Assembly (NCBI GenBank): GCA_016234805.1
Contig: JACRNU010000054.1
Coordinates: 24,329-88,328, forward strand
DNA: 64,000 nucleotides
Source of the DNA: Elusimicrobiota bacterium
Lineage (GTDB): Bacteria > Elusimicrobiota > Elusimicrobia > UBA1565 > UBA9628
Reading direction: 5' to 3'
Part shown: one piece after another, positions 8,305 to 61,723 of the stretch
How positions within the stretch are numbered: the stretch's first letter is position 1
Layout of the letters: every line of letters starts with the position of its first letter
Notes under the pieces: model-generated
The model's input: the letters and a program-made list of their open reading frames with translations, nothing else
Told to the model about the DNA's origin: nothing
Database searches by the model: none
Translations under genes and position numbers: made by a program

Positions 8305-10098
8305 GTGAAGAGACTCATCCCCTGGCTCGTCGCGGCCGCGACCTTCCTCACCTTCATCCCGGCCCTGGAAAGCCTGTTCGTGAACTGGGACGACACCGCC
8401 AATTTCCTGGAGAACCCGGACTTCAAGAACGCCGGGTTGGGTGAGCTGCGTTGGATGTTCTCCACCTTCCACCTGGCGCATTACCAGCCCGTGACCTGGC
8501 TGACTTGGGGGTTGGACAAGGCGCTTTGGGGCACGAACCCCTTCGGCTACCACCTGACGAACCTCGTCATCCATTGCGCCACGGCCGCGATCTTCTGCCT
8601 GCTATGCCGCCGCGTCCTCGACCGCGTCATGCCTGAGAGTTCGGATTTCCACCCGTACGCCGCGGCTTGGGCCGCCCTGCTTTTCGCGGTGCACCCATTG
8701 CGGGTCGAGGCCGTGGCATGGGCCACGGAGCGCAGGGAGCTCCTGTCCTCGTTCCTGTTCCTCTCGGCCGCGGCCCTGTATCTGAGGCCTCGCGGCCGAA
8801 GCCATGAGGCCCCGAAGCCTGGGCTGCATTGGGTCCTGGTCCTGGGGGCCTTGGCCATGCTGTCGAACGTCCGCACGGTCTCCCTGCCCCTGGCCCTGCT
8901 TCTGCTCGACTACTATCCCCTCGGCAGGCTCTCGGCAACGAGGCCGGGCGCTGACCCGGGAGTCTGGAAGGAAAAGGCCCCTTTCTTCCTGCTGGCTTTC
9001 GGCGTGGGACTGATCGGCCTCCTGGCCCAGGCCACCACTTCCACCCTCATCCCGGTGGCCAAGGCCGGGTTCGTCTCAAGAGCGGTCCAGTCTTGCTTCG
9101 GGGTGGGCTTCTACCTGTGGAAATCGCTGGCTCCGTTCGGGCTGTCGAATTGGTACGGCGATTCCTATCTCGAAGCGCGCGCTCCTGTGGCCGTGCTCGG
9201 AGCGGCGGCAGCGGTCTTCTTGACCGCCGGGCTCGCTTGGCGGGCGAAGACCGGCCGTGGGAAAGCCCTGCTCGCGTGCTGGCTCTGGTATCTGGTCACC
9301 CTTTTCCCCTCCCTGGGGATCGTCAAGTCCGGCCGTCAGATCGTGGCGGATCGTTACAGCTATCTTCCCTGCATCGCCTTCGCCCTGCTGGCCGCGGCCG
9401 GTCTGTGCAAGCTGAGGACCCTCTCAAGGGAAGGCCATGTCAGGCGCTGGGTCTTCATCGGGGTCGCGGCGGGCGCCGTGGCATGCCTGCCGCTGCTCTC
9501 CGGCCTGACCTGGCAACAGTGCCGCGTATGGAACGACTCGGTCAGCCTGTGGTCAAGGGCTTTTGCCATCGACCCTCGCTCCGTGTTCATCCGCACCAAC
9601 TTCGGCATCGCGCTTCTCCAGGCCAGGAGATTCCAGGAGGCGGTGAAGGCCTTCGAGACCATCACCGAGGACGCGGTGGATGGGATGGACCCGGATTCCG
9701 GCAGGTCGTTCTTCAGCTTCATCCGGTTCCTTTCTGCCATGGCGCACAACAACTGGGGCGTGGATCTCATGACCCGTGGCCGGCCCGTCGAGGCCGTGCC
9801 TCATTTTCAGAAGGCCCTGTTCTACAATCCGGAGTCGGAGAGAGGCCACTTCAGCCTGGGTCTGGCCCTGCTGCGCTCCGGAAGGCTCGATGAAGCCATC
9901 CCGAGGTTCGAGGCCGCGGTGAAGGCCTCTCCGGATCTTCTGGATGGCAGGCTCCATCTCGGCGAGGCATTGGCCCTCAAGGGGAGGAGGAAGGACGCGG
10001 AAGCCCAGTTTCGAGCTGTTCTGCGTCTGGCTCCGGACCCGATGAGAGCCGCCAAAGCCCGGGAAGGACTGCGGCGGCTCGGCCGGGTGGATCGATGA
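8305..10098 (+). CDS. TMTC-like (DUF1736 / GT-C fold) polytopic membrane protein with C-terminal TPR repeats; putative protein O-glycosyl/mannosyltransferase (paralog 1)
   Basis: About 11 TM segments with a DD motif in the first loop (FVNWDDTANFLENP) and a WMFSTFHLAHYQPV motif. The C-terminal third is TPR-like (YNPESERGHFSLGLALLRSGRLDEAI...). Confidence 0.6.
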   Translation: MKRLIPWLVAAATFLTFIPALESLFVNWDDTANFLENPDFKNAGLGELRWMFSTFHLAHYQPVTWLTWGLDKALWGTNPFGYHLTNLVIHCATAAIFCLLCRRVLDRVMPESSDFHPYAAAWAALLFAVHPLRVEAVAWATERRELLSSFLFLSAAALYLRPRGRSHEAPKPGLHWVLVLGALAMLSNVRTVSLPLALLLLDYYPLGRLSATRPGADPGVWKEKAPFFLLAFGVGLIGLLAQATTSTLIPVAKAGFVSRAVQSCFGVGFYLWKSLAPFGLSNWYGDSYLEARAPVAVLGAAAAVFLTAGLAWRAKTGRGKALLACWLWYLVTLFPSLGIVKSGRQIVADRYSYLPCIAFALLAAAGLCKLRTLSREGHVRRWVFIGVAAGAVACLPLLSGLTWQQCRVWNDSVSLWSRAFAIDPRSVFIRTNFGIALLQARRFQEAVKAFETITEDAVDGMDPDSGRSFFSFIRFLSAMAHNNWGVDLMTRGRPVEAVPHFQKALFYNPESERGHFSLGLALLRSGRLDEAIPRFEAAVKASPDLLDGRLHLGEALALKGRRKDAEAQFRAVLRLAPDPMRAAKAREGLRRLGRVDR

Positions 10099-11783
10099 AG
10101 CGTCCGTCCCGCGCGGCCTGGCGGCAAAGGACCACCGTCCCCGAAGGCAGCGGGCAGGGGCCCGCAGTCCCCGCAGGGGGCGCTGGACGTCCTCCTTTCG
10201 CCGGAGGGGGCTGGTGGGCCTGTCTGGTCCTGGGAACCGCGGTCGCGTCCGTCTTCAGCGGGGTCCTTTCGAACGGGTTCTTCGACTTCGACGATTACGA
10301 GTGCTTCGTGGACAACCCCATGGTCCACGGCCTGGGCTGGACGCAGCTCAAGTGGATGTTCACGTCCCTGCACCTGACGGCCTATCAGCCGCTGGCCTGG
10401 CTGGCGGGCGCCCTGCTCTGGACGATCGCGGGCCCGCTGCCCGGCCCATTCCATCTGCTGAGCCTCGTCCTGCACATCGCCAACGCGATCCTGCTCTGCG
10501 TCCTGCTGTCCCGGATCCTGGAGCGGGCCGCGCCCTCGACCGAGGTCCGGGAGAGGCTGCTCGCGGCCGGAGCGGCCTCCCTCCTCTGGTCCATCCACCC
10601 CACGAAAGCCGCGGCCGTGGCCTGGGCCACCAAGGTCTCGGACCTGATGGCGGCGTTCTTCTTCCTCTGCGCATGTCTCTCCTACCTGGGGCGCGGTCAA
10701 GGCCGGAGGCCGAGCGCCCCGACCGCCTCCGAGGATGGCGTTGGCTGGTCGGGGCGCGGGCAGGAACAGGGACGGGCGTGGCGCCCCGGCATCCGGGCTT
10801 CGGCCTGGCTGTTCCTGGCCTCGGGTCTGTCGCATTGGACCGGCATCGCCTTTCCGCTGGTCCTGATCCTCCTGGATTTCTATCCGCTCAAGAGGCTCGG
10901 GGCCGATCCCGTGGGATGGTTCAAGGGGCCTTCGGCCAAGGTGTGGTTCGAGAAATGGCCTTTCCTCGCCATCGCCATAGGCCTCGCTGTCATCAACGGC
11001 CATGGCAAGGCTCAAGTCAAGGGCATCGAGCTTCTCTACGGCCTGACCCATCCCATGGAAGCGTCCCTGGCCGCGGCTTTCTATCTCCGAAAGGTCCTGT
11101 TCCCGACGGATCTCGCGGTCCTCTATGCCATCAACGGCCCCGCAAGCTCCGCGGGCCTCAATCCTGGAGCCGCGGCGCTCCTCATCCTCGTCGCGACCCT
11201 CTATGCCGCCTCGGTCTGGCGGTCCGCTCCCCTGGCCCTCGGAGGCTGGCTGTTCTGGCTCGCAGGGCTTCTTCCATCCTTCGCCTCTTCAGCCGAGGGT
11301 ATCATCTACGGACAGGATATCTATGCCTATATACCATCCATGGGCTTGGCGCTCCTGCTCGCCTGGGCCTTGTCGTCTGTCATGGGGTTCGAAGGGCCGG
11401 CCCCCTCCGGGGACCTGCCGCCCTTGCGGCAGGGCCCGCTGTCCCGGATGAAGAGGCTCCTGCTGCTCACCATGGCGCTGGGCTCGACGGCCGCTGCCTC
11501 GGCGATCTTCGTTCCGATGAGCATGCGGCAGACCGAGCTCTGGCGCGAGCCCGGAGCTGTGTGGAGGCAGACCCTTGCCGCGGACCCCGACCTGTGGATC
11601 GCGCACTACAACCTTGCCGCCCTGCTCGTGCGGCAGGGCCGCTGGGACGAGTCCAGGCCGCACTTCCAGGAGGCGCTGCGTCTGAGGCCCGGCGCAGAGG
11701 GATGGAAGGAAGACATCTCGGCCGCGCTTCGCCAAATGCCGTCTTCCTCGCCGGGGCGGAAACCGGGCGTCCCGGCGAAATGA
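10095..11783 (+). CDS. TMTC-like GT-C/TPR membrane protein (paralog 2)
   Basis: Architecture and motifs are shared with 8305-10098 (FDFDDYECFVDNP, WMFTSLHLTAYQPLAW). It carries the 57-bp repeat family near both its 5' and 3' ends, so the true start may be internal or non-ATG. Confidence 0.55.
   Translation: MKRPSRAAWRQRTTVPEGSGQGPAVPAGGAGRPPFAGGGWWACLVLGTAVASVFSGVLSNGFFDFDDYECFVDNPMVHGLGWTQLKWMFTSLHLTAYQPLAWLAGALLWTIAGPLPGPFHLLSLVLHIANAILLCVLLSRILERAAPSTEVRERLLAAGAASLLWSIHPTKAAAVAWATKVSDLMAAFFFLCACLSYLGRGQGRRPSAPTASEDGVGWSGRGQEQGRAWRPGIRASAWLFLASGLSHWTGIAFPLVLILLDFYPLKRLGADPVGWFKGPSAKVWFEKWPFLAIAIGLAVINGHGKAQVKGIELLYGLTHPMEASLAAAFYLRKVLFPTDLAVLYAINGPASSAGLNPGAAALLILVATLYAASVWRSAPLALGGWLFWLAGLLPSFASSAEGIIYGQDIYAYIPSMGLALLLAWALSSVMGFEGPAPSGDLPPLRQGPLSRMKRLLLLTMALGSTAAASAIFVPMSMRQTELWREPGAVWRQTLAADPDLWIAHYNLAALLVRQGRWDESRPHFQEALRLRPGAEGWKEDISAALRQMPSSSPGRKPGVPAK
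10152..10214. repeat. 57-bp structured repeat family, degenerate copy A (inside the 5' end of the TMTC-like gene)
   Basis: GTCCCCGCAGGGGGCGCTGGACGTCCTCCTTTCGCCGGAGGGGGCTGG aligns to the canonical unit CCTGGCGCAAGGGCGCCAGGTCCCCGGAGGGCAGATGTCCTCCGCTCCCGGAGGGGGC. Confidence 0.6.
11395..11443. repeat. 57-bp repeat family, shortened copy B (reverse orientation, inside the 3' end of the TMTC-like gene)
   Basis: The reverse complement reads CCTGCCGCAAGGGCGGCAGGTCCCCGGAGGGGGCC. It is translated in frame as PSGDLPPLRQGP. Confidence 0.65.
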
Positions 11784-11835: not shown

Positions 11836-13365
11836 ATGCCCAATAAGATCCTGGTCATCCGGCTCTCCTCGCTGGGGGATGTGGTGCTCACCGCTCCCGT
11901 GTTCCGCAGCCTCAAGGCGGCTTGGCCGGACTGCTCCATCTCCGTCCTGGTCAAGCCCCAGTTCGCTGGCGTGCTCAAAGGCAATCCGCACCTCAGCGAG
12001 ATCATCCCGTTCCGCGGCCTGAGGGACGCGGTCTCGACCATACGGTCGCGCGGGTTCACCCATCTCCTGGACCTCCACGCTACGACGCGGTCCTTCCTCA
12101 TCCGTTCCATGTGCGGCGTGCCCGAGGTCTCGGTATATAAGAAGGACGCGCTGGCACGGACGCTCTATGTCAGCTTCGGCTTGCGCTCGCCCGTGCTGGA
12201 GAAGCACACCATCGAGCGCTACCTCGAGGCTCTGTCGCCTTGGGGAGTGCGGTCGAGCGACCTCTCCCTCTCGTTCGGGGACTATGGCGAAGCGGGCCCT
12301 GTCGGGGAGACGGGGACCGAGCCAGGGGCGCGCCCGGCCAGCATCCTCGTCATCCAGACCGCTTTCCTCGGGGACTGCCTCCTGACCCTGCCTCTCCTGC
12401 GCGAGCTCAAGGCCCTCTCCCCCTCCTCCCGCGTCACGGTCCTGACCACGGAGCGCACGGAGGAGGTCTTCTCCGGGAGCGGTTGGGTCGACGAGACCAT
12501 CGTGGACCGCAAGCGGGGCGAGCACTCCGGCCTGTTCGGGACCCTGGTCATGGCGCGCAGGCTCCGTTCCAGGGGATTCGACTGCGCCGTGATACCGCAC
12601 CGCTCCTTCCGCAGCGCCTTCCTGGCGTGGCGCTCCGGGATCCGCGAGCGCATCGGCTTCTCCACCAGCGCGGGAAGCTTCCTCCTCACGCGGCAGGTCC
12701 CGTTCGCCTGGCACATGCACGACTTGGAGCGCAATCTCGCGCTCCTGCTGCCCCTGAAGGCCGGATTGAAGCTGCGGCCTGACGAGTCCCGCTACCTCGA
12801 GCCGGATATCGGCGGAGCCGCGGCAGCGCGGCTTCAGGCCGCCGGGATCGGCCCCCTTGACCGCGTTGTGGCCGTGCATCCCGGGTCGACCTGGCCTACC
12901 AAGAAGTGGTTCGAGCATCGTTTCCGCGACCTCTGCGGCCGCCTGGTGAAAGACGGCTTCAAGGTGGTCATCGTGGGCGGCGCGGCTGACAGGGACTTGT
13001 GCGCCAGGCTCGCTTCAGGCTCAGGGTCCGCGGACTTCTCCGGGGGCGCGCTTTCCGAGCTCAAGAGCCTGATGGGCAGGCTCTCCCTCTTCGTGACCAA
13101 TGACTCCGGCCCCATGCACGTTTCCGCCGCGTCCGGGGTGCCCACCCTGGCGATCTTCGGCCCCACCACGCGTGAGTTGGGTTTCTTCCCCTACGGTCCC
13201 GGCCATCGGGTCCTGGAGGCGGACCTCGCCTGCCGCCCCTGCGCCCTGCACGGCGGCAGGTCGTGTCCCGAGGGCCACTTCCTGTGCATGGGCCTCATCA
13301 CCACGGACCTCGCCCACCGCGCCGCCCGCGAGATGCTAGCGGCTAAGGAGCCGCTGTCCCTGTAG
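11836..13365 (+). CDS. Tandem-domain glycosyltransferase family 9 (two ADP-heptose:LPS heptosyltransferase-like modules in one polypeptide)
   Basis: Two GT9 N-terminal signatures are present (ILVIRLSSLGDVVLTAPVFRSLK and ILVIQTAFLGDCLLTLPLLRELK). A single C-terminal donor-binding motif follows (FVTNDSGPMHVSAASGVPTLAIFGPTT). Confidence 0.75.
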   Translation: MPNKILVIRLSSLGDVVLTAPVFRSLKAAWPDCSISVLVKPQFAGVLKGNPHLSEIIPFRGLRDAVSTIRSRGFTHLLDLHATTRSFLIRSMCGVPEVSVYKKDALARTLYVSFGLRSPVLEKHTIERYLEALSPWGVRSSDLSLSFGDYGEAGPVGETGTEPGARPASILVIQTAFLGDCLLTLPLLRELKALSPSSRVTVLTTERTEEVFSGSGWVDETIVDRKRGEHSGLFGTLVMARRLRSRGFDCAVIPHRSFRSAFLAWRSGIRERIGFSTSAGSFLLTRQVPFAWHMHDLERNLALLLPLKAGLKLRPDESRYLEPDIGGAAAARLQAAGIGPLDRVVAVHPGSTWPTKKWFEHRFRDLCGRLVKDGFKVVIVGGAADRDLCARLASGSGSADFSGGALSELKSLMGRLSLFVTNDSGPMHVSAASGVPTLAIFGPTTRELGFFPYGPGHRVLEADLACRPCALHGGRSCPEGHFLCMGLITTDLAHRAAREMLAAKEPLSL

Positions 13366-13374
13366 GCGAGGCCG

Positions 13375-13455
13375 TTCTCCTCCCGCCGGAGTGGGGCTGG
13401 GTGCAAAGGGGTCCCGCCCCTGAAGCCGAGGTAGGCTTCCTCCCTCCGGAGGGTT
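13375..13455. repeat. 57-bp repeat family, degenerate copy C (~1.3 units) in a convergent intergenic region
   Basis: CTCCCGCCGGAGTGGGG then GGTGCAAAGGGGTCCCGCCCCTGAAGCCGAGGTAGGCTTCCTCCCTCCGGAGGG aligns to the canonical unit. Confidence 0.5.
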
Positions 13456-22052: not shown

Positions 22053-23072
22053 ATGCCCATGAAGAAGCATCCCGCGGTGCTGACGGCCCGAGAACGCCGC
22101 CGCCTGAAGGGCTATGTCCGGCAGTTCTCCGGCAAGAGGGTCCTGGTGGTCGGGGACCTCATGCTCGATGAGTTCATCCGCGGGGCGGTGCACCGCATCT
22201 CCCCGGAGGCGCCGGTCCCGGTCGTGCAAGTCCGGGCCGAGAGCTACGTCCCGGGCGGGGCGGGCAACGTGGCCCGCAACCTGGCCGCCCTCGGGGCGGG
22301 CGTCGTGGTCGTGGGCGTGGTGGGCGAGGACGCGGCCGCGGAGCGCCTGCGCTCGGATTTCGCGGGCCACGGCATCGACGTGGCCGGCCTGTTGTCGGAC
22401 TCCGGGAGGGTGACCTCCCAGAAGTGCCGGATCATCGCGGAGCACCAGCAAGTCGTCCGGTTCGACCGGGAGACCACGGGCCCGCTGTCCGGCGCCTCGG
22501 AGCGCGAACTCCTGCGCCGCATCCCCGCGGCCGTGGACCGCGCACACGCCGTGGTCCTCTCCGACTACGGCAAGGGCGTTGTGACGCCCGCGGTCGTCAA
22601 AGCCGTCCTCTCCCGGGCCAAAGGCCGGCGATTGCCGGTCACCGTGGACCCCAAGCCGGAGAACTTCAACCTCTACCGCGGCGTCACCTGCCTGACGCCC
22701 AACGTGCACGAGGCTTGGGCCGGGATGCGGCGCCATCCCGAGCCGGGAAGAGGGGCTCTCGACGCGCTGGGACGGAGCATCCTCTCAGGGCTCGGATGCG
22801 CGTCCCTCATCATCACCCGCGGCCCCGAAGGCATGAGCCTCTTCAAGCGGGGCGGGGCCGGAGTCATCCACATCCCCACCGAGGCGCGCGAGGTCTACGA
22901 CGTGACCGGGGCGGGCGATACGGTCATCTCCGTGCTCACCCTGGGCCTGGCCAGCGGAGCCTCCATCGAGGCCGCCGCGGTCGTGGCCAACTGCGCTGCG
23001 GGCATCGTGGTGGGCAAGCTCGGCACCGCCACGGTCTCATCGGAGGAGCTCATCAAGGCCCTGGCCCAATGA
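22053..23072 (+). CDS. hldE: D-glycero-beta-D-manno-heptose-7-phosphate kinase (HldE/RfaE domain I only, PfkB family)
   Basis: Motifs VLVVGDLMLDEFIRGAVHRISPEAPVPVV and DVTGAGDTVISVL. No adenylyltransferase domain is attached. The true start may be the second ATG at 22059. Confidence 0.8.
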   Translation: MPMKKHPAVLTARERRRLKGYVRQFSGKRVLVVGDLMLDEFIRGAVHRISPEAPVPVVQVRAESYVPGGAGNVARNLAALGAGVVVVGVVGEDAAAERLRSDFAGHGIDVAGLLSDSGRVTSQKCRIIAEHQQVVRFDRETTGPLSGASERELLRRIPAAVDRAHAVVLSDYGKGVVTPAVVKAVLSRAKGRRLPVTVDPKPENFNLYRGVTCLTPNVHEAWAGMRRHPEPGRGALDALGRSILSGLGCASLIITRGPEGMSLFKRGGAGVIHIPTEAREVYDVTGAGDTVISVLTLGLASGASIEAAAVVANCAAGIVVGKLGTATVSSEELIKALAQ

Positions 23073-23887
23073 GGAAAAGGGACGCGGTCCAGGTCGGCGG
23101 GACCGCGGTCATCATCCCTGCCCGGTGGGGATCCACGCGCTTCCCCGGCAAGGTCCTCGCCCTTCTCGGAGGCAAGCCCATCGTCCGGTGGTGCCACGAG
23201 GCCGCGGTCGCGTCCCGGATCGGCCCTGTGGCCGTGGCCACGGACGACCTCGAAGTCGTCCGGGCCGTGGAAGCCTTCGGAGGCCGCGCTGTCATGACCC
23301 CGAAAAACCTGGCCTCGGGCACGGACAGGGTCCTTGCGGCCCTCAAGCGGCTGCGGTGGTCCCCCCGCTTCGTGGTCAACCTGCAGGGAGACGAGCCCCT
23401 GATCTCCCCGTCGGGTTTGAGGAGCCTCGATCGCCTCCTGCGCTCCGCGGGCGCCGACGTGGCGACCCTCGTCACCCCCTTGAAGGGCGCGGAACGCCTC
23501 CAGCGGCCCGACGTGGTCAAGGCCGTCCTGGCCAAGGACGGGCGGGCCCTTTACTTCTCCCGTTCCCCTGTCCCGTACCGCCGCCAGCCCCCTCCGGCGA
23601 GAGGAGTACGGCTTTCGCCTTCGGGGACGGCGGTCCCTTGCCGCCAGGAAGAGCCCCGGCGCTGGGAGCACATCGGCATCTACGGGTACAAGGCCGCATC
23701 CCTGCGCCGCTTTGTCTCCCTTCCCCCCTCCCCGCTCGAGCGTGCCGAGTCGCTCGAACAGCTCCGGGCCCTGGAGGATGGGATGAGCATCTACGCCGCG
23801 GTGGTTCCCGCCCGCGGCGTGGCCATCGACACGCCGGCGGACCTGGCGCAAGCAGAACGACTGATACAGAAAAGAAGGAGCCCTTGA
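23069..23887 (+). CDS. kdsB: 3-deoxy-manno-octulosonate cytidylyltransferase (CMP-Kdo synthetase)
   Basis: Motifs [39 protein letters not shown] and HIGIYGY. It carries a 57-bp repeat copy in frame at 23588-23648. Confidence 0.85.
23588..23648. repeat. 57-bp repeat family copy D (reverse orientation), in frame inside kdsB
   Basis: The reverse complement reads CCTGGCGGCAAGGGACCGCCGTCCCCGAAGGCGAAAGCCGTACTCCTCTCGCCGGAGGGGG. It encodes ...[19 protein letters not shown]... in a loop that is enlarged relative to typical KdsB sequences. Confidence 0.75.
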
Positions 23888-23949
23888 TGAAACGACGAAT
23901 CGTCCCCCACGATGCTCGCCTCCCCGCGGGGGAGGCTCGCGGCATATGA
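23887..23949 (+). promoter_or_regulatory. Micro-ORF (20 codons, [20 protein letters not shown]) spanning the CCTCCCCGCGGGGGAGG hairpin; stop/start overlaps on both sides (TGATG with the kdsB stop, ATGA with the pyrG start)
   Basis: Copy 2 of the coupling cassette. It shows both nucleotide-level and peptide-level similarity to 2471-2557. Confidence 0.6.
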
Positions 23950-26504: not shown

Positions 26505-26894
26505 ATGAAATGCATGAATTGCGGGCAGGACAACAAGGACACGGCCAAGGCGTGCAGGAAGTGCGGCCGCGACCTTTCCACTCCGCCGGCGTGGTTCCCG
26601 GACGCGAAGTGGCACATGCGCACACTGGGGATCATCTACGCGTGCCTGGTGGTCCTGTACTTCGGAGTCTCCTTCCTCCTGCGAAGATTGCCCAGGCCCT
26701 ACCACATCCGCGACATCGCGCCCGAGATGACGCCCTGGCTCAAGCGGCCGGGTCTGCCCAAGCACCTGCCGGAGGAGCAGCTCAAAGCTCCGGCGAGTCC
26801 CCCGAAGCCTGTCTCGGAAGCGGGAGCCACTGGCGGCAAGGGACCGCCGTCCCCGAAGGCGCCGGACGTTCTCCTCTCGCCGGAGGGGGAGTGA
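26505..26894 (+). CDS. Zinc-ribbon (CxxC...CxxC) membrane protein; its C-terminal tail is encoded by a 57-bp repeat copy
   Basis: MKCMNCGQDNKDTAKACRKCG followed by one TM segment. The last ~25 aa (...[23 protein letters not shown]) derive from repeat copy E. Confidence 0.5.
   Translation: MKCMNCGQDNKDTAKACRKCGRDLSTPPAWFPDAKWHMRTLGIIYACLVVLYFGVSFLLRRLPRPYHIRDIAPEMTPWLKRPGLPKHLPEEQLKAPASPPKPVSEAGATGGKGPPSPKAPDVLLSPEGE
26828..26890. repeat. 57-bp repeat family copy E
   Basis: CACTGGCGGCAAGGGACCGCCGTCCCCGAAGGCGCCGGACGTTCTCCTCTCGCCGGAGGGGGA, the reverse complement of copy D. Confidence 0.75.
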
Positions 26895-29400: not shown

Positions 29401-29477
29401 CTGCTCCCCTTCAGGGGGCCTGGCGCAAGGGCGCCAGGTCCCCGAAGGGCAGGCGTCCTCCGCTCCCGGAGGGGGCC
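29401..29477. repeat. 57-bp repeat family copy F (canonical form) between convergent genes; it encodes the C-terminal tail of the minus-strand metalloprotease
   Basis: CCTGGCGCAAGGGCGCCAGGTCCCCGAAGGGCAGGCGTCCTCCGCTCCCGGAGGGGGCC, preceded by a CCCCTTCAGGGGG mini-hairpin. Confidence 0.8.
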
Positions 29478-31273
29478 ATGCTGCGCCGCTTGAGCAGGAG
29501 GAAGGCGAGCCTGAGGTGCCGGGGAAGGACCGAGCCTGCGAGCGAGCTCATGATGCTGGCTGGGTTCTGGAACTCCACCGAAGCGCGCAGGTCCGGGTCG
29601 TAGCCGTTGCGGTACTCGTCGGCCAGGCCCATGGTGTGGCCGAACTCGTGGGCTGCGGTGGCGTACTGGAGGTCGTGGCCCAGGAGGATGACGTCCGGCC
29701 CGGCCAGGGAGAGCCACTTGTCATTGTCCCGGATGGCCAGGGCTCCCTGGGAGAAAGCGGTCCCAGGGGCGAGCTTGCGGATCTCGATCTCCGTCCTGAA
29801 GGTGTGGGTCTTCTTCTGGAACTCGAAGCTGCCCTGCCAGTACTCCTCGATGGAGGCTTTGACGGACCGGAGCACGGCGTCGTCCTGGATGTCGGTCTCG
29901 AACGAGGCCTTCACCACCCAGCCGCCCTTCTCCGCGGACAGGCGCAAGCCTTTGTTGTCCGGGACCCATACGATGCCGCGGGCCCTGCCCGTGATGGATT
30001 CGGGGTTGAGGAAGCCGTTCACCAGCGAGTAGGACGCGATGCGCTCCACCCCGGTGAAGAGCACGCCCGCCTTGCGCTTGTAATCCTCGAGCACAGCGAT
30101 GAGCTTCTGCGCGGTGAATTCCTTGGCTGAAAGAGAATATCCCTCGATGCGGCGCGAGAACTTGGCGCTGCGCGCAGCGATCTGGTAGCGGGAGAGGTGC
30201 TTCTCCACGAGGAACCGCCACTCCTTGACCATGGCCGCCCAATCAGCCGTCTTGTTGACCAGGGAGACCTCGGTGTCGCGGTCCTGCCCGCGAGATTCCT
30301 TGGGGAGCGGAGGCTTGATCTGCCAGGGGTGCTCGACTTTCTCCTGCGCCTGGCCCGTGGGAGCGCCGGTCTGGGCTGGAGACGGGGCGAGCAGGCTCTG
30401 GACCTTGCCGTCGAGAGTCCGCATGGGCTTGAGATAGGGGTTTTCGCTCAGGGCCTTCACGGTCCCCTTGAGTCGTTCGTTGAGCGCCTGGGCCAGTCGG
30501 CCGCGCTCCATGGCCGGCAGGTCGCTTTCCGCCACGCGGCGCAGACTTCCGATCATGGCGTTGAGCGTCAGAGCCATGGCCTGCCGCTCGTTACGCAGCC
30601 AGGGGAGGACCTCTTCCATGGCTTTCGCGTCCCAAAGGATGAAGGCTTGGAACCCCTGGCTGGTCAGGATGGGATGGGCTCCTGTCACGAACTCGGCTTC
30701 CATCCAGGAGACCTGCTTGCTGTCCAAATCAGTGACAGGCCCGGCAGGAGGCAGGTCTTCCTGGGCTTCGGCCAGGGTCTCCCCGATCAAAGCTTTCTCG
30801 ATCTCCTGTCCGGCCCGGCGGCTTCCGTCCGGGGAGGCCTTGTCATCCCCTGCTGTCTTCAAGGGGGCGGCAATGGTCTCGCTCAACTGAAGGATGCGCG
30901 ATTCAAGGCTGGTTGCGGCTTTCCTTTCAGCCGATGTCTGTGAGGGTCCGGCCGGCGTCAGGACCGGGACCGCGGCGCTGAGAGAGGGGACGACCGAGTC
31001 CTTGATCTCCGGAGCAGGCAGACTGAGCAGCGCGATTGAAACAGGGATGATGCTGCCGGCCGGGGCCGCGAGGCTCAGGGAAAGCTGGTTCTGGAAGGAG
31101 GGCCCTGAGATCGGGCTGACCGGCGCCGCCAAGATCGAGCCCGGGACTGTCCGGATCCGGATGGGAGCGGTCCTGATGGTCTGGCACCAGGATGTGCCGG
31201 TCAGGACCAGGGCCGCGGCAAGGATAGGACTCGGGAACGCCATTGATTGATTATGCTTGCAGGATAAGACCAT
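29411..31273 (-). CDS. Secreted zinc metallopeptidase-like protein (HEXXH)
   Basis: 620 aa with a signal-peptide-like N-terminus and HEFGHTMGLADEY near the C-terminus. The last 19 aa (SGSGGRLPFGDLAPLRQAP) are read from repeat copy F. Confidence 0.5.
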   Translation of the reverse strand: MVLSCKHNQSMAFPSPILAAALVLTGTSWCQTIRTAPIRIRTVPGSILAAPVSPISGPSFQNQLSLSLAAPAGSIIPVSIALLSLPAPEIKDSVVPSLSAAVPVLTPAGPSQTSAERKAATSLESRILQLSETIAAPLKTAGDDKASPDGSRRAGQEIEKALIGETLAEAQEDLPPAGPVTDLDSKQVSWMEAEFVTGAHPILTSQGFQAFILWDAKAMEEVLPWLRNERQAMALTLNAMIGSLRRVAESDLPAMERGRLAQALNERLKGTVKALSENPYLKPMRTLDGKVQSLLAPSPAQTGAPTGQAQEKVEHPWQIKPPLPKESRGQDRDTEVSLVNKTADWAAMVKEWRFLVEKHLSRYQIAARSAKFSRRIEGYSLSAKEFTAQKLIAVLEDYKRKAGVLFTGVERIASYSLVNGFLNPESITGRARGIVWVPDNKGLRLSAEKGGWVVKASFETDIQDDAVLRSVKASIEEYWQGSFEFQKKTHTFRTEIEIRKLAPGTAFSQGALAIRDNDKWLSLAGPDVILLGHDLQYATAAHEFGHTMGLADEYRNGYDPDLRASVEFQNPASIMSSLAGSVLPRHLRLAFLLLKRRSMAPSGSGGRLPFGDLAPLRQAP

Positions 31274-31298
31274 GGAGAGGGTCCTAGGACCCAGAAGG

Positions 31299-31325
31299 GA
31301 TGGATAGAGGGCCTAAACCATAGGG
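31299..31325. repeat. 22-bp direct repeat GGGCCTAAACC(A)TAGGGCCTAT, left copy
   Basis: It recurs at 33553-33580 with one mismatch. The two copies bracket a 2.25-kb pseudopilin and Cys-rich-protein module. Confidence 0.75.
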
Positions 31326-31448
31326 CCTATAAGAGCTGCTCCGATTGGTCACCACGCCTGCCGCCGAGCAGCAACGGGCGCACACGGATTTTGCGAATTA
31401 TGCCGCACTTCCCATCAGATGTCGCTGGACCCCGCGAAGAACTTCAGG

Positions 31449-32033
31449 CTAGGGCACGCACAGGCACTTCACCGCCGACCCGGTCACATCCGCCATGACC
31501 CCTCCCTTGAAGAGGCGCCCTGCGGCGGAGTCCGTGCAATAACGGTTGCAGGCCGCCAGGCAGGCCAGCTCGTTCCAGTCATCGCCGGCTCCGCAGGAGC
31601 CGACGTACTCCTTCAGGGCGGCGAAGCTGACGGTCGCCACCAGGGCGCTCATCGGCCGCCAGCCCTGCCTGAGCCTGAGGTTCAGGTCCTGCGTGTCGGT
31701 GGTGTAGATGAGCGCGCCCTCCGTCGTGATGGCGTCCCTCTGCGTCGTGTTCATGCGGGGCGGGAGGAACCCCGCGGTCGTGGACTCCACGTCGAGCGCT
31801 CCGTTCGGGTTGGTCGTGCCCACGCCCACGCGTCCGCCGTCCCGGGCCAGCAGGGTGACGCCCGTGGTGGTCAGCCGCTGATAGACGCCAGCGGGCGACG
31901 GATAGTAGGTCGTCATGGTGAGCGACTCGGAGCCGAGTTCGGCCGCGCAGAGGCAGACCAGGCAGGCCGCCAGGATGCCGCGCGCCTGCCCGCGGCCGAA
32001 CCGGATGCGGATGACGATCTCCCTTTCTTCCAT
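31449..32033 (-). CDS. Secreted Gly/Thr-rich protein with a Cys-rich C-terminal domain (tail-fibre-like motif pair)
   Basis: Hydrophobic N-terminus, then GVGTTNPNGALDV...PRMNTTQRDAITTEGALIYTTDTQDLNLRLRQGW, then 8 Cys in the last 50 aa (CGAGDDWNELACLAACNRYC...KCLCVP). The start codon is uncertain. Confidence 0.45.
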   Translation of the reverse strand: MEEREIVIRIRFGRGQARGILAACLVCLCAAELGSESLTMTTYYPSPAGVYQRLTTTGVTLLARDGGRVGVGTTNPNGALDVESTTAGFLPPRMNTTQRDAITTEGALIYTTDTQDLNLRLRQGWRPMSALVATVSFAALKEYVGSCGAGDDWNELACLAACNRYCTDSAAGRLFKGGVMADVTGSAVKCLCVP

Positions 32034-32120
32034 AGAGGCCCTCCGTACCTCATCTTAGCACTATCCGAAGGGATTGCGAAAGGCGCGCCACAACGATATA
32101 CTCCGAGGAAGGACCGAACC

Positions 32121-32537
32121 ATGGACTCCCGGGGAACAACCTTCGTCGAGCTGATGGTCGCGACCGTGCTGCTCGCCTCGGCGGCCTCGATGGTGGGCTC
32201 CGTCTTCCTGAGCGGCAGCCAGCAATCAGCGCGGGCGCAGCGGCGGGAGGAGGGCTCCGTTTGCCTTCAGCAGCTCATGGACGAGCTCAGGAACTACGTG
32301 ACGGCGGACACCGGAACGGTCGCGGCCGCTCCCGGCGGGAGCTGGGCGCTCCCGGGCGACGGCTGCGGGTCCTGCTGGGCGCTCCAGCCGGGCAAGCACG
32401 ACGTCACGGCCCGTCTCCCGACCGCCTGGGCCGGCGTCGGCATGGAAGCGGCGATGAGCTACACCGTGGCCGGGGAATCCCGCAACGGGCTCACCGTGCG
32501 GCGCGTGGACGCCCGCATCGACTGGAATGTGCGCTAA
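32121..32537 (+). CDS. Minor pseudopilin (prepilin-type N-terminal cleavage/methylation domain)
   Basis: MDSRGTTFVELMVATVLLASAA gives G|TTFVEL with a Glu at +5, followed by a hydrophobic helix. Confidence 0.6.
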   Translation: MDSRGTTFVELMVATVLLASAASMVGSVFLSGSQQSARAQRREEGSVCLQQLMDELRNYVTADTGTVAAAPGGSWALPGDGCGSCWALQPGKHDVTARLPTAWAGVGMEAAMSYTVAGESRNGLTVRRVDARIDWNVR

Positions 32538-33132
32538 GAGACTCCTTCCGCGCGGCCGAGGCGGCGTCACTCTCGTCGAGCTGCTCCTCTGCATGACCCT
32601 TTTCTCCATGGTCCTCGCGGCCGTCCTCCAGATCGAGTACATGGGACTCAGGGCTCAGATGCGCTCCGCCGCCGCGATGGTCGTGAGCGCCAACGTCGTC
32701 CTGGCCCGCCAAGCCCTGGTCGGCGCGCTCCAGCCTGCGTGCGACGTGCTGAGCCCGGCTCCCGGCTCCCGGGGGCCCTCCCTCACCGTGCTGCATAACT
32801 ACGACGCCGAGTTGCGGCAGCCCCTGATAAGCGGCTTGCCGGCCGAGCTCTCGTACTTCTGCGTGGATGAGGGGAAGCGACGATTGTTCCTCTACCGCGG
32901 GCCCGTCACGGCCGCCTTCGGGGACTGCGGCTCGCTGCCGGGCCTGGGCGTCGAACGGGTCCTCGTCGCGGGAGGCGACAACTTCCGCGTCACGGCGGAT
33001 TTCTCCCGTCCGCCGGCCGCGAACAACCTGGTGGCGGCGGACTTCACCGTGTCCCTCCGGCACGCCTCGCTCACCACGGACACCACGGTGACGCGTCATC
33101 TCGAGGTGGGCTTTCGCCATGCCCTGCGATAG
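32527..33132 (+). CDS. Minor pseudopilin (GspJ-like)
   Basis: ...RGRGGVTLVELLLCMTLFSMVLAAV is a prepilin-like leader plus helix. Its start overlaps the previous gene. Confidence 0.55.
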   Translation: MCAKRLLPRGRGGVTLVELLLCMTLFSMVLAAVLQIEYMGLRAQMRSAAAMVVSANVVLARQALVGALQPACDVLSPAPGSRGPSLTVLHNYDAELRQPLISGLPAELSYFCVDEGKRRLFLYRGPVTAAFGDCGSLPGLGVERVLVAGGDNFRVTADFSRPPAANNLVAADFTVSLRHASLTTDTTVTRHLEVGFRHALR

Positions 33133-33481
33133 AGCCCGGTCCCTGCGCCTCGCGGGCGGCCGCACCGGGTCGGTCCTGATATGGGTCGAGGTGACTCTGG
33201 TCATCCTCGCGATCATGAGCAGCCTGGTGGTCAGGATCGCTATGAACCAGCACACCATGGTCGCCCGGGCCAACGACTCGGCCCAGATGCGGCTGGCGGC
33301 CCTGGCGGCGGAGAGCCAGGCCGCGGCCTGCCTCTACGACGAAGGGGATTTCGGCCGCGCCCACTGCTCGCTGGCCTTGGCGGCCGCCTGCCTGCCGTCC
33401 CGGATCGCGGGCTACGACGTGACATTCACCGCCTCGGGCTCGCCCCCGTCCTGCGAGCTCAAGGTGAACCTCACCCGGTAG
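33119..33481 (+). CDS. Pseudopilin-like small protein
   Basis: Hydrophobic N-terminal helix VLIWVEVTLVILAIMSSLVV with a Glu, 120 aa. This is a weak call. Confidence 0.35.
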   Translation: MPCDRARSLRLAGGRTGSVLIWVEVTLVILAIMSSLVVRIAMNQHTMVARANDSAQMRLAALAAESQAAACLYDEGDFGRAHCSLALAAACLPSRIAGYDVTFTASGSPPSCELKVNLTR

Positions 33482-33552
33482 CCGATCCGTGTCGCATCCG
33501 GCCGCTTATGCCTCCCGCGAATCCAGTCCGGGAACCAGGCCTGTCTTTCGAC

Positions 33553-33580
33553 GAGGGGCCTAAACCCTAGGGCCTATTCG
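33553..33580. repeat. 22-bp direct repeat GGGCCTAAACC(C)TAGGGCCTAT, right copy
   Basis: Pairs with 31299-31325. Confidence 0.75.
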
Positions 33581-33599
33581 AGGAAAACTTATGTTCAGT

Positions 33600-34700
33600 C
33601 TAGGTATAGATTTCCAGATGGGTATGCAGGCCGGTCTTCCTGGCAAGGGCCAGGCCTTGGTCGAAGAGCTTCTCACCTTCAGTCGTGCGGCCTTGAGCGT
33701 GTCGGACCGCTGCCAGGGCCATGAGGGATAGAACGACGCCCCGGTGCTCCTCGAACCTGCCGAACCCTGAGAGAGCTGTCATGAGCCTTCGGCCTGCATC
33801 ATCGAGCCTGCCCTCTGCCATGGCGATCTTGCCCAGGCCCCAATCCACATAGGCCAGGTCCACCGGGTCCTTGATGAGGGTGTAGAGCCGGTGCGAGGCA
33901 GCGTAGCAGCCACGCGCTTCCTTCAGCCTGCCCAACTGCCGCAGGCAGTTGCCTGTCCCGCACTCGGCATAGGCTTGGGCGAAGAGGTCTTGGGTCTTGG
34001 CAAAGGCCTTCCTGCTGCGAAGGTACCAAGCCAGGGCAGCGGATAGGTTTCCCTTGATCCTCTCGATGCCGCCCAGGCCGAGCATGGCATATCCCCGGCC
34101 CATGGGATCCTTGGCCTTGCCTGCCAGAGCCAGGGAGTCCTCGTAGTCCTTGAGAGAGCCGGAGAGGTCGCCGCTGAAGCGTCGCGCTCCGCCCAGGGCC
34201 CAGAGGATGTAGGCCATGGCTGGAAGGTCCTTCCTGCGCCGGAAGAGCGCGAGGAATCCCGAGAGCTCCCGGATGCTCCGAGGGTAACGGCCCTCGGCCC
34301 GGTCGAGCAGGATGCCTTCGAGCCTGCAGCGTTCCGCGTGGGAGGCCAGGCCCTGTTTTTTGGCCAAGGACATCCCCTGGGAGAGGAGTCTCCTGGCCTT
34401 CGCGCATTCCCCGAGGCTGCGCAGCGCTGAGACCAGACCCAGGCAGGAATCGAGCCAGAGCACGGTGTCGCGGGACCGGTCCGTGCCGGCCAGGGCTTTC
34501 TCGTACCAGGGCCGGCATCCGCCCAGGCTGCCCATGGACCTCAGGCACTCTGCGCGCACATGCGCGTGCTCGGCGCGGAACTGCGGCGGCACGCCAAGGC
34601 CGAGAGCGCGCAATCCATCCTGAGGCCTGCCATCTTCGAGGAGCTGTTGGGCTTTCTCGAGGTCCTGCGCCGCGCTGAAAAGGTCCTTCGATGCGCTCAT
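33600..34700 (-). CDS. Tetratricopeptide-repeat protein
   Basis: 366 aa of consecutive TPR-like helical hairpins (AxxYxxxG-type spacing). Confidence 0.7.
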   Translation of the reverse strand: MSASKDLFSAAQDLEKAQQLLEDGRPQDGLRALGLGVPPQFRAEHAHVRAECLRSMGSLGGCRPWYEKALAGTDRSRDTVLWLDSCLGLVSALRSLGECAKARRLLSQGMSLAKKQGLASHAERCRLEGILLDRAEGRYPRSIRELSGFLALFRRRKDLPAMAYILWALGGARRFSGDLSGSLKDYEDSLALAGKAKDPMGRGYAMLGLGGIERIKGNLSAALAWYLRSRKAFAKTQDLFAQAYAECGTGNCLRQLGRLKEARGCYAASHRLYTLIKDPVDLAYVDWGLGKIAMAEGRLDDAGRRLMTALSGFGRFEEHRGVVLSLMALAAVRHAQGRTTEGEKLFDQGLALARKTGLHTHLEIYT

Positions 34701-47857: not shown

Positions 47858-49399
47858 TTGGTAAAATCTCCCTTCCAACCAACGATGAAGACCCTTTTCC
47901 TCAACCCCCCCTCATTCTCGGGATTCGATGGCGGAGCAGGGTCGAGGTTCCAGGCCCGGCGCGAAGTCCGGTCTTTCTGGTATCCGACCTGGCTGGCCCA
48001 GCCCGCGGCCCTTATCCCGGACTCCAAGCTCGTGGACGCCCCGGCTGACGGCCTGACCGTGGAGGACGCAGCCCGGATGGCGGCAGGCTACGAGCTGTGC
48101 GTCATGCACACCTCCACGCCTTCCTTCGACAACGACGTGAAGGTCGCGGAGCTCCTCAAGCAGCGCTACCCGGGCATCATGGTCGGGTTGGTGGGCGCTC
48201 ACGTGGCGGTCCTGCCCGAGGAGTCCCTCAAGGCCTCGTCCGCGGTGGATTTCGTGGCCCGCGAGGAGTTCGACTATTCCCTGCGCGAGGTGGCCCTGGG
48301 CGAGCCCCTGGACAAGGTCCGGGGCTTAAGCTGGCAGAAAGACGGCCGCATCCGCCACAACCCGGACCGCGAGCTCATCGCGGACATGGACGAGCTTCCG
48401 AGCGTGCTCGATGTCTACAAGCGCGACCTCACCGTCGAGAACTACTACATCGGCTACCTCAAGCACCCCTATCTCTCGCTCTACACGGGCCGCGGGTGCC
48501 CGAGCCGGTGCACCTTCTGCCTCTGGCCGCAGACCGTGGGCGGGCACGTCTACCGCACCCGCTCTCCTGAGAGCGTCATCGGGGAGATGGCTCGGGCCAA
48601 GACCCTCTTCCCGCAGGTCAAGGAGTTCTTTTTCGACGACGACACCTTCACCGCGGACCTCGAGCGCGCGGCCGCCATCGCCCGGGGCCTCGGGCGGCTG
48701 GGGATCATGTGGTCCTGCAACGCCCGGGCGAACGTCCCCTTCGAGTACCTCAAGATCTTCAAGGAAGGCGGGCTGAGGCTCGTGGTCGTGGGCTACGAGT
48801 CGGGCAACCAGGCCATCCTCAACAACATCAAGAAGGGCATCCGCGTGGACATCGCCCGCCGGTTCACCAAGGACTGCCGCAAAGTGGGCGTCGCGGTGCA
48901 CGGGACCTTCATCTTGGGCCTGCCCGGCGAGACCCCTGAGACCATGGATGAGTCCCTGCGCTTCGCCTGCGACCTGGACATGGACACCATCCAGGTCTCC
49001 CTGGCCGCACCCTACCCAGGGACCGAGCTCTACCGCCAGGCCATGAAGAACAAGTGGTTCGACGAGAACTCCCTGGTGCGCAACGACGGCACCCAGGGCT
49101 GCACCCTGCAGTACCCGCACCTTCCTTCCGCGGCCATCACCGCGGGCGTGAAGCGCTTCTACAGCCGGTTCTACGGCAGGCCCAAGCCCATCCTGCGCAT
49201 GCTCGTGAAGATGGCGCTCGACCCCGAGGAGCGGCGCCGCAGGCTCCGCGAGGGCAAGGAATTCCTGAGCTACCTGCGCGGCCGCGACGGGTGCGAGTGC
49301 CTGGCGCAAGGGCGCCAGGTCCCCGGAGGGCAGACGTCCTCCGCTCCCGGAGGGGGCGAGGCTCAAAGACGCGTCGAGAAAGAGGGCGTCGATGCTTGA
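47858..49399 (+). CDS. hpnJ: B12-binding radical SAM protein, HpnJ-like (hopanoid side-chain cyclitol ether formation)
   Basis: MKTLFLNPPSFSGFDGGAGSRFQARREVRSFWYPTWLAQPAA N-terminus. B12-binding and radical SAM core with an unusual CxxxxCxxC spacing (CPSRCTFC). The C-terminal ~30 aa are encoded by 57-bp repeat copy G. Confidence 0.65.
   Translation: MVKSPFQPTMKTLFLNPPSFSGFDGGAGSRFQARREVRSFWYPTWLAQPAALIPDSKLVDAPADGLTVEDAARMAAGYELCVMHTSTPSFDNDVKVAELLKQRYPGIMVGLVGAHVAVLPEESLKASSAVDFVAREEFDYSLREVALGEPLDKVRGLSWQKDGRIRHNPDRELIADMDELPSVLDVYKRDLTVENYYIGYLKHPYLSLYTGRGCPSRCTFCLWPQTVGGHVYRTRSPESVIGEMARAKTLFPQVKEFFFDDDTFTADLERAAAIARGLGRLGIMWSCNARANVPFEYLKIFKEGGLRLVVVGYESGNQAILNNIKKGIRVDIARRFTKDCRKVGVAVHGTFILGLPGETPETMDESLRFACDLDMDTIQVSLAAPYPGTELYRQAMKNKWFDENSLVRNDGTQGCTLQYPHLPSAAITAGVKRFYSRFYGRPKPILRMLVKMALDPEERRRRLREGKEFLSYLRGRDGCECLAQGRQVPGGQTSSAPGGGEAQRRVEKEGVDA
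49300..49357. repeat. 57-bp repeat family copy G (canonical), in frame at the 3' end of hpnJ
   Basis: CCTGGCGCAAGGGCGCCAGGTCCCCGGAGGGCAGACGTCCTCCGCTCCCGGAGGGGGC encodes ...LAQGRQVPGGQTSSAPGGGEA... Confidence 0.8.
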
Positions 49400-56577: not shown

Positions 56578-57234
56578 TCAATCCGACCCGAAGTACTGCC
56601 TGTTCGACCGGAGGAAGGTGTCGACCTTGAGGCTGACGGGGACCGGGATGGTGGCCGCGGCGCCCGTGGCCGGGCGGGTGCCGCTGCCGACCGCGAAATG
56701 CATCTCGATGCCGTCCCCGCGGTTCCTGAAGATGGGCGGCGACGAGGTGAGGTCCTCGTCGCGATAGTGGAAATTCCTGACCAGCACCGTGGTGTTCCCC
56801 CCGAGGATGCAGCCGCCCCCGTTAGGGATGCTGGCCGGGCAATTGAGGCCCGGTCCGACGACCGCGATGCGCAGAAGGGCGGGCATGCCCCCGCCGATGT
56901 CGGGGCTCCGGCAGTAGTAGAACGCGGTGACGTTCAAGCTCGTGTTGAGGCGGCCCTCACCCAGGCTGGTGAATTGCAGGGGCGAGAAATTGACGCACCC
57001 GCCGAGGCCGTCTCCCGTGGCGCCGTGGGCGGGGACGTTGATGAACGAGGCTTCCTCGATCTCCTGGCTCATCTGCTCAAGGGCCATGATGGTCCATCCG
57101 CTCACCTCCCCCTTGAGGCTCGTGTCCACGTGGCTCCTCAGGAGGGAGGCGAACACGGTCATGAGGGCGACGAGGACCGCGGAGCTCAGGCTCAGGGCAA
57201 GGAGCAGCTCGATGAGGGTGAACCCCTGGCGCAA
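56578..57234 (-). CDS. Minor pseudopilin with a G|FTLIELLLAL prepilin cleavage site; its 5' end and leader lie inside the 57-bp tandem repeat array
   Basis: ...LAPLRQG|FTLIELLLALSLSSAVLVALMTV. There is no ATG. The candidate start is TTG at 57234 (MRQG|FTLIE) or an upstream CTG. The same frame stays open through all four repeat units. Confidence 0.55.
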   Translation of the reverse strand: MRQGFTLIELLLALSLSSAVLVALMTVFASLLRSHVDTSLKGEVSGWTIMALEQMSQEIEEASFINVPAHGATGDGLGGCVNFSPLQFTSLGEGRLNTSLNVTAFYYCRSPDIGGGMPALLRIAVVGPGLNCPASIPNGGGCILGGNTTVLVRNFHYRDEDLTSSPPIFRNRGDGIEMHFAVGSGTRPATGAAATIPVPVSLKVDTFLRSNRQYFGSD

Positions 57235-57472
57235 GGGCGCCAGGTCCCCGGAGGGCAGATGTCCTCCGCTCCCGGAGGGGGCCCGGCGCAAGGGCGCCAG
57301 GTCCCCGGAGGGCAGATGTCCTCCGCTCCCGGAGGGGGCCCGGCGCAAGGGCGCCAGGTCCCCGGAGGGCAGATGTCCTCCGCTCCCGGAGGGGGCCCGG
57401 CGCGGGGGCCCGGCGCAAGGGCGCCAGGTCCCCGGAGGGCAGATGTCCTCCGCTCCCGGAGGGGGCCCGGCG
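57225..57472. repeat. Tandem array of four 57-bp repeat units (canonical family sequence), the fourth with an 11-bp insertion
   Basis: CCTGGCGCAAGGGCGCCAGGTCCCCGGAGGGCAGATGTCCTCCGCTCCCGGAGGGGGC x4. The unit is 19 codons, so every frame repeats (e.g. RRAPSGSGGHLPSGDLAPL on the minus strand). There are no spacers, so this is not a CRISPR array. Confidence 0.85.
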
Positions 57473-61712: not shown

Positions 61713-61723
61713 ACATCGTACGG

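Follow-up and report, generated by a model that had tools for sequence, protein, structure and literature searches.

The best documented case of selfish repeats that colonise housekeeping genes in frame is that of Rickettsia, and the phenomenon is usually discussed together with reduced genomes and relaxed selection. REPs are typically extragenic, and the reading frames of MIRUs connect with the stop and start codons of adjoining genes. MIRUs, said to have been described by Supply et al. in 1997, are reportedly 40-100-bp units, often in tandem, placed between the operon genes of mycobacteria; as far as is known they are intergenic, and we know of none inside enzyme domains. Rickettsia palindromic elements (RPEs; Ogata et al. 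2000, 2002) are described in PMC10969869 as dispersed non-autonomous repeats, many of which lie in unrelated genes, including housekeeping genes. According to that source, RPEs are always in-frame and are read through as an extra peptide that is apparently compatible with the host fold, and insert-free orthologues of the host genes exist (PMC10969869). MITEs, such as Correia/NEMIS, ERIC and BOX, are small, non-autonomous and multi-copy, and can form in-frame fusions with host ORFs (PMC10969869).

In the window, by which we mean the whole 64-kb stretch of Elusimicrobia DNA that was analysed, a family of dispersed repeats with units of 57 or 60 nt was found, one copy of which lies within kdsB. 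Judged by analogy of behaviour, the closest precedent of this 57/60-nt family is the RPEs, since both are dispersed, in-frame in unrelated genes, apparently compatible with the host fold and absent from existing orthologues. However, RPEs are ~150 bp long, AT-rich and found in the reduced genomes of obligate intracellular bacteria, whereas the Elusimicrobia units measure 57-60 nt, have ~75% G+C and belong to groundwater genomes. Many of the Elusimicrobia copies are also located at gene ends or junctions and in tandem arrays, positions in which we know of no RPEs. Given the differences in length (57-60 vs ~150 bp) and in composition, homology is not expected, and we know of no sequence relationship between the two. 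The 57/60-nt family is a new repeat family, representing a kind of phenomenon that is already known (RPE-like).

Likenesses to other systems were also found. As in the REP/BIME and REPIN sequences of proteobacteria, the units are short GC-rich hairpin repeats, located mostly at gene ends or operon junctions and sometimes in tandem, without terminal inverted repeats and without target-site duplication. Unlike REPs, the Elusimicrobia units are longer, contain two different hairpins and are often translated; regarding REP hallmarks, the family consensus has no GTAG-type head, and no inverted doublets were seen, the copies being single or in direct tandem. The repeat shares with MITEs its small size, its non-autonomous nature and its multiple copies, but it differs in having no terminal inverted repeats (ends CTGGCGGC... 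/ ...GGAGGGGG) and no duplication at position 26830, and in that the 8-nt repeat observed at kdsB is part of the element. In common with MIRUs, the 57/60-nt family forms tandem arrays and often keeps stop/start overlaps intact.

The kdsB gene and its 60-nt insert

The gene located at 23069-23887 (+), with 819 nt and a product of 272 aa, is kdsB (CMP-Kdo synthetase), as the preliminary description of this DNA had stated. The product covers profile positions 1-217 of 217 of PF02348 (CTP_transf_3; E = 8e-52, 176.5 bits with a cut-off of 22.6), matches 13 solved KdsB chains in the PDB (E = 1e-48 to 1e-36) and is identical to NCBI MBI5883066.1, from an Elusimicrobia MAG. The start ATG of kdsB overlaps the stop of the PfkB-family (hldE/rfaE-like) gene upstream. 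By analogy with E. coli, kdsB would be an essential gene in this organism too; efforts towards antibiotics have taken KdsB enzymes as targets (PMC7717453).

The peptide that the preliminary description had quoted from this protein is present in the ORF translation, and the underlying segment was indeed found to be a repeat copy on the reverse strand. Positions 23588-23647 and 26830-26889 are reverse complements, 92% identical over 60 nt, a match to which nothing comparable was obtained in 100 shuffles; the 5 differences between the two copies are clustered centrally. A profile constructed from copies in other genomes only recovered the kdsB segment at full length (E = 8e-14). The copy had been taken for a 57-bp repeat, but it is one of the 60-nt members of the family. 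Translation of its 20 codons gives residues ~173-192, with a boundary ambiguity of 8 nt, and all six frames across it are open, with no stop codon. Local duplication or slippage was considered as the origin of the lengthened loop and was rejected, as the segment matches a dispersed family that includes copies in other genomes.

The closest orthologues, P0002 and P0003, have 242 aa and are 85% and 80% identical, respectively, over aligned residues (79% and 75% by BLASTP). Each of them lacks exactly 20 aa in the protein alignment and exactly 60 nt in the DNA alignment, and excision of the 60 nt from the window gene leaves an 11-residue loop, as in the orthologues (PVPFERLETPRRWEH, PVPFRRLECPKRWEH; FERLETPRRWE, FRRLECPKRWE). 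The orthologue contigs share synteny with the window (lpxK-DUF3108-PfkB-kdsB-pyrG-kdsA-small zinc-ribbon gene-lptC onward), and blastn collinearity with them is interrupted only at repeat sites. Orthologues this similar, in the same gene order and without exactly these 60 nt, rule out that the segment is ancestral KdsB sequence. The excess length of the linker had been estimated at about 10 aa; relative to the closest orthologues it is exactly 20 aa, and the lower figure applies only to the comparison with gammaproteobacterial enzymes, where the surplus is 10-12 aa because their loop is longer.

Among the best 120 homologues, nearly all of which are Elusimicrobia KdsB proteins of 240-255 aa, only the window protein has 272 aa and the segment. 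The insert was found in no protein database record other than the source record MBI5883066.1, no contig record was found for the exact protein, and the kdsB-specific variant was present in no JGI/ENA metagenome contig. A member of the repeat family occurs at a different locus (L005) of the genome that encodes P0003 (JACRDQ), indicating that the family predates the kdsB insertion.

The repeat family in the window and in other genomes

About 13 repeat units were detected by nhmmer at 8 loci of the window (Table 1). Two variants were distinguished, one of 57 nt, CCTGGCGC-AAGG-GCGCCAGG-TCCCCGGAGGGCAGAYGTCCTCCGCTCCCGGAGGGGG, and one of 60 nt, CTGGCGGCAAGGGACCGCCGTCCCCGAAGGCGCCGGACGTYCTCCTCTCGCCGGAGGGGG, whose members include the kdsB and 26830 copies. 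Both lengths are multiples of three, and all six frames of the units are open. The two-hairpin fold of the 57-nt copies is much stronger than that of shuffled sequences (z = -5.5, -3.9 and -2.2); the 60-nt copies fold no better than shuffled sequence (z = -1.2 for the kdsB copy and -0.1). The pairing of hairpin 1 is kept via compensatory changes at 3/8 pairs (13 cells), a value reached by 0/500 shuffles and obtained from related sequences, in which the 60-nt variant is shifted in register by one column. Hairpin 2 was left out of the covariation count, the alignment of 57- with 60-nt units being out of register there. Within the 64-kb window and the 8-kb loci available, the family showed neither a transposase nor terminal inverted repeats, nor any consistent duplication of target sites, the ends CTGGCGGC / CCTGGCGC and GGAGGGGG not being complementary, and the whole window gave no Rfam match at the gathering threshold.

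Table 1. Location of the repeat copies in the window and of the direct repeat at the kdsB junction.
Feature	Position	Strand	Evidence
60-nt repeat copy, antisense to kdsB	23588..23647	-	92% reverse-complement identity; E = 8e-14; absent from P0002/P0003; blastn break of +60 nt
GCCGCCAG, left member of the 8-nt direct repeat flanking the insert	23580..23587	+	read from sequence
60-nt copy, closest to that of kdsB	26830..26889	+	protein and DNA alignments with L001, L002
57-nt copy, antisense to HEFGH-motif gene (- strand)	29419..29475	+	two-hairpin fold, z = -5.5
57-nt copy in the last 33 codons (C-terminal tail) of a B12/radical-SAM gene (47858-49399)	49300..49356	+	reading frame only
Four units in tandem array (spacing 57, 57, 70 nt)	57225..57465	+	between two pilin-like genes (- strand)
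93-nt copy (unit plus extra internal sequence)	10118..10210	+	in a TPR-containing membrane-protein gene (10095-11783)
Partial copy (hairpin 1 + CCCCGGAGG), also in the 10095-11783 gene	11404..11433	-	read as PSGDLPPLRQG
Two degenerate units in a convergent intergenic region	13345..13452	+	partial copy at the orthologous site of L002

The 26830 copy, located 3.2 kb from that of kdsB, adds exactly 60 nt in frame to the gene for a 129-aa zinc-ribbon/membrane protein (26505-26894). A single codon separates it from the stop, and it lies just upstream of a GTGA stop/start overlap with lptC that has been preserved. The 29419 copy replaces the stop codon of the HEFGH-motif gene and extends its C-terminus by 19 aa (SGSGGRLPFGDLAPLRQAP), while the 49300 copy is read as CLAQGRQVPGGQTSSAPGG. 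The copy at 10118 falls within the first 40 codons of its gene, just after the start codon, and the adjoining paralogue is free of it. Comparison with orthologues or with this paralogue confirmed recurrent in-frame insertion in the zinc-ribbon, HEFGH and TPR/membrane genes. In the tandem array, each unit has an in-frame TTG, the last of them 3 codons before the GFTLIE prepilin motif.

A degenerate 30-nt pattern was used to scan a collection of species-representative genomes and metagenome contigs. In the species-representative genomes the pattern was found at 8 loci only, all of them in four other groundwater Elusimicrobia MAGs, and it was also found in two Hainich groundwater metagenome contigs, numbers that are too small for firm statistics. 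No papers on REP-type repeats in Elusimicrobia were found. In other genomes, one and the same frame of high GC3 continues on either side of the copies in a QueG-like gene (inside PF08331), in the gene for a 1,200-aa GltD-like oxidoreductase and in two membrane-protein genes, these inserts being recognised by frame and composition only. Further copies of this description lie at the very end of coding sequences, in the final codons of genes for an epimerase, an ABC transporter, RimP and others.

Sense copies are read in the LAQGRQVPGG...GGG frame in 8/9 cases and antisense copies in the APSGxGGxxPxGDLAPLRQ frame in 5/6, with the kdsB and 26830 copies as exceptions. The apparent preference for one frame per orientation is taken as a lead only, since the sample is small and its members are not fully independent.

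The insertion junction and the predicted effect on KdsB

Very probably, a short GC-rich non-coding dispersed repeat was inserted antisense in kdsB and is tolerated in a permissive loop as a neutral or slightly deleterious passenger. The junction offers some indication of how the copy may have arrived. The right member of the 8-nt direct repeat that flanks the insert, at 23640-23647, constitutes the terminal 8 nt of the element, which are also found in the copies at 26830 and 10118. The direct repeat leaves the insertion point ambiguous over 9 positions and duplicates Arg-Gln codons. A MITE with an 8-bp target-site duplication was considered and rejected: the 8 nt belong to the element, terminal inverted repeats are lacking, and nothing is duplicated at the 26830 site. 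Moreover, the direct repeat was not read as a target-site duplication because a chance match between a duplicated target and the end of the element is very unlikely. It is more likely that the target already held GCCGCCAG (codons Arg-Arg-Gln) and that the copy entered by a homology-assisted event. The empty-site comparison at 26830 showed neither duplication nor microhomology, and the two sites that were compared (kdsB and 26830) yield no general insertion rule.

Under the tolerated-insertion explanation, a repeat copy from this family of 57/60-nt, two-hairpin units would have entered codon ~172 of kdsB, in antisense orientation, in the lineage of the MAG. Its route may have been homology-assisted copying, for example by template switching or by gene conversion with a tandem array as donor, and not cut-and-paste with target-site duplication, as suggested by the 8-nt identity between the target and the end of the element. 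Since the unit has 60 nt and no stop in any of the six frames, translation continues through it and adds 20 residues, among which Pro, Gly, Ser and Arg are frequent. The landing site is the loop between the YFSR and HIGIYGY strands of the C-terminal (Kdo-binding/dimerisation) domain, where an active enzyme probably tolerates the insert, which would persist as a neutral or slightly deleterious passenger.

Structural prediction is consistent with such tolerance. The AF2 model of the protein with its insert has a pLDDT of 92.2, and only residues ~170-200 score 65-76, forming a coil flanked by strands 159-164 (ALYFSR) and 199-208. In the AF2 model of the insert-free P0002 the same strands enclose a 14-residue coil, which has the lowest pLDDT of that model (76). 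Foldseek comparison gave target-normalised TM values of 0.88-0.93 to the solved KdsB structures 3K8D, 1H7E and 2Y6P. As modelled, the rest of the predicted KdsB fold is unaltered by the insert. Both the orthologue alignments and the AF2 model bear out the earlier view of an in-frame insert between conserved motifs of an otherwise intact-looking KdsB.

The loop itself is variable in nature. In the 95 homologues in which both motifs could be located it has 9-34 aa, usually 11-12, and other KdsB lineages show independent expansions to 23-34 aa (including loops of 31 and 34 aa). The window protein retains 36/36 of the columns invariant across 72 KdsB sequences (itself included), among them P17, R19, K28, Q106, D108, R165, H201, E224 and D254. 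With the insert removed, dN/dS was 0.16 and 0.21 with respect to the two orthologues, and 0.18 between the orthologues, values that average the whole time since divergence and not just the time since insertion. The kdsB gene looks functional, with the insert lengthening a naturally variable loop.

The proposal that the insert occupies a surface loop away from the active sites is at most partly supported. The insert forms a low-confidence coil in a length-variable loop, but the C-terminal domain of KdsB, to which this loop belongs, binds Kdo and forms the dimer (PMC3149649). The insert starts directly after an Arg that is at least 90% conserved and whose codon the 8-nt repeat duplicates, and only 9 residues separate its end from the invariant His201. 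Because it lies in the Kdo-binding/dimer domain, adjoining the conserved Arg and near His201, the insert can be considered harmless only presumptively.

Alternative explanations and wider implications

Three other explanations were weighed, all of them weaker than a genuine, tolerated insertion. It is highly improbable that short-read mis-joining at the repeat put the 60 nt into an insert-free kdsB. In favour of such an artefact, the MAG was assembled from short reads and holds many near-identical repeat copies, and the insert appears in no second assembly or protein record; however, a mis-join would link different loci, whereas both flanks are collinear with the orthologue and the surplus is exactly one in-frame unit. 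The sequence of the kdsB copy is also shared by no other copy, the nearest one differing from it at 5 positions, and it is therefore no collapsed copy of another locus of the window. In addition, the 60 nt are shorter than a typical read length, and equally clean insertions were found at 26830 and 29419. No greater probability is assigned to the inactivation of kdsB, according to which the gene would be a young pseudogene, its function being supplied by another copy or LPS synthesis being lost. The position of the insert in the Kdo-binding/dimerisation domain, adjoining conserved residues (PMC3149649), would fit with a loss of function, and the view of the genome covers 64 kb only. Nevertheless, the ORF is open over 819 nt, the family-invariant residues are kept, and dN/dS is 0.16-0.21. 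The gene is part of a conserved LPS cluster, in which the lpxK, kdsA, lptC and lptB ORFs are present and align with L001 and L002, and loops as long as this one (31 and 34 aa) occur in other KdsB lineages.

Slightly less remote, although still improbable, is a function for the insert itself, either as a new KdsB interaction or regulation, or as an mRNA element affecting stability or translation pausing in the hldE-kdsB-pyrG-kdsA operon. Several properties of the family point in this direction: the compensatory changes that keep the pairing of hairpin 1 (3/8 pairs, 13 cells, 0/500 shuffles), the favoured frame of translated copies in each orientation, the unit lengths in multiples of three, and a GGAGG motif carried by the copies, which at 26830 is 4 nt before the GTG start of lptC. 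The copy in kdsB does not conform well to a functional role, given that it was found in one genome only among the best 120 homologues and its frame differs from that of the other antisense copies, so that no conserved peptide is produced. Its fold energy is unremarkable (z = -1.2), it is modelled as an unstructured coil, and the copies of the family are heterogeneous in host, orientation and position.

Beyond kdsB, the family might represent a second, independent RPE-like case of 'protein-coding repeats', in a high-GC Elusimicrobia lineage that the analysis met only in groundwater assemblies, shaped for translated DNA and spread by homology-assisted copying and not by a transposase, although we hold this broader reading to be doubtful. 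The shaping for translation would be suggested by the 3n unit lengths, the six open frames, the preferred frame and the preserved stop/start coupling in packed operons. Homology-assisted spread would be suggested by the tandem arrays, by partial unit starts that follow three loci and, at kdsB, by the identity of GCCGCCAG in target and element.

The insertion represents an RPE-like outcome in a conserved LPS-cluster gene of a high-GC bacterium whose phylum is not that of Rickettsia, and orthologues free of the insert are available. The gene and its orthologues form a natural before/after pair that could inform how much loop insertion KdsB tolerates, and the family offers a small, tractable system for the entry of non-coding repeats into the coding DNA of near-gapless operons. 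A single insertion in kdsB would not surprise a specialist; what is notable is that copies across the family tend to sit in translated sequence, and this in a high-GC lineage that presumably does not consist of obligate intracellular bacteria. For annotation, it should be kept in mind that low-complexity Pro/Gly/Ser segments in Elusimicrobia proteins may be repeat-derived.

A different repeat of ~60 nt was observed between the kdsB stop and the pyrG start, at 23885-23949 (+), with a second copy at 2469-2557. This second repeat has exactly the stop/start arrangement of MIRUs: at 23885-23949 it carries a mini-ORF of 20 codons, which overlaps the TGA of kdsB with its ATG and the ATG of pyrG with its TGA. 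In L001 and L002, kdsB and pyrG overlap directly.

Main-family repeats within and beside coding sequences

Copies of the dispersed main repeat family in related Elusimicrobia MAGs (see table) are found in a QueG-like gene, where the copy falls within the PF08331 domain, in a gene for a ~1,200-aa GltD-like oxidoreductase and in two membrane-protein genes. An identical high-GC3 frame runs on past both ends of each copy, and from this continuity the four copies are predicted to be intragenic.

The reading frame was tallied for all translated main-family copies, from the window and from L004-L011 (loci in related genomes). Although all six frames are open, the tally points to a frame bias: the sense copies read (G)LAQGRQVPGG...GGG in eight of nine cases, and APSGxGGxxPxGDLAPLRQ was the reading of 5/6 antisense copies. 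The copies in kdsB and near the stop of the zinc-ribbon/membrane protein gene (26830) are read in frames other than those of the majority.

Each unit of the tandem array between the pilin-like genes reads APSGSGGHLPSGDLAPLRR/Q on the gene strand (-) and contains an in-frame TTG, the final one lying three codons upstream of the GFTLIELL prepilin motif. Given this position and frame, translation of the downstream pseudopilin may start within the repeat, which would then encode its leader; alternatively, the repeat may extend a leader that the protein already has.

Location of repeat copies and of ORFs in the stretch missing from L002
Feature	Position	Description
Main family, 4 tandem 57-nt units	57225-57465	Between two pilin-like genes, 57474-57986 (-) and ~56578-57220 (-)
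Main family, related MAGs	L006 4356-4412; L007 5617-5675; L008 616-674; L010 1140-1198	
Second family, ~60 nt	23885-23949; 2469-2557	Unrelated to main family; core palindrome GCCTCCCCGCGGGGGAGGC
Third family	55274-55428; 10685-10760; 63816-63891	62-nt unit, GCCCCGGCCGGCCTGAC...GGCCTCCGGCCTGGACCCC
Fourth family	4917-4965; 5607-5655; 61660-61708	49-nt palindromes, GGTGCCAGGCTTGG...CCAAGCCTGGCACC
ORFs in the ~2.3-kb stretch	31449-32054 (-); 32458-33132 (+); 33092-33481 (+)	

Additional repeat families

Both second-family copies start with TGATGAA, in which the stop of the upstream gene overlaps the ATG of a mini-ORF, and end with ATGA, in which the mini-ORF stop overlaps the ATG of the downstream gene, a MIRU-like layout. 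One mini-ORF (20 residues) sits between kdsB and pyrG, which overlap directly in the orthologous loci, unlike in the window; the other, at 2471-2557, encodes MKLRFAPTTTRLPAGEACDTPAGEACEL*. With its main-family insert and this second-family copy at its 3' end, kdsB has thus been struck twice by repeats.

The third family forms 2.3 tandem copies at 55274-55413, and the copy at 10685-10760 lies in the TPR-containing membrane-protein ORF 10095-11783 together with two main-family copies. The fourth-family palindromes are located at ORF boundaries (4913/4914, 5606/5607 and 61634-61724).

Differences from a syntenic locus

The syntenic locus L002 carries a degenerate partial main-family copy (489-525) at the intergenic site orthologous to window 13345-13452, suggesting that this insertion is older than the window/L002 split; a second unit would since have been gained, or kept, in the window. 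About 2.3 kb at window ~30815-33600 is not present in L002 (17451-17940), and weak partial repeat matches were found within this stretch near 32894-32940.
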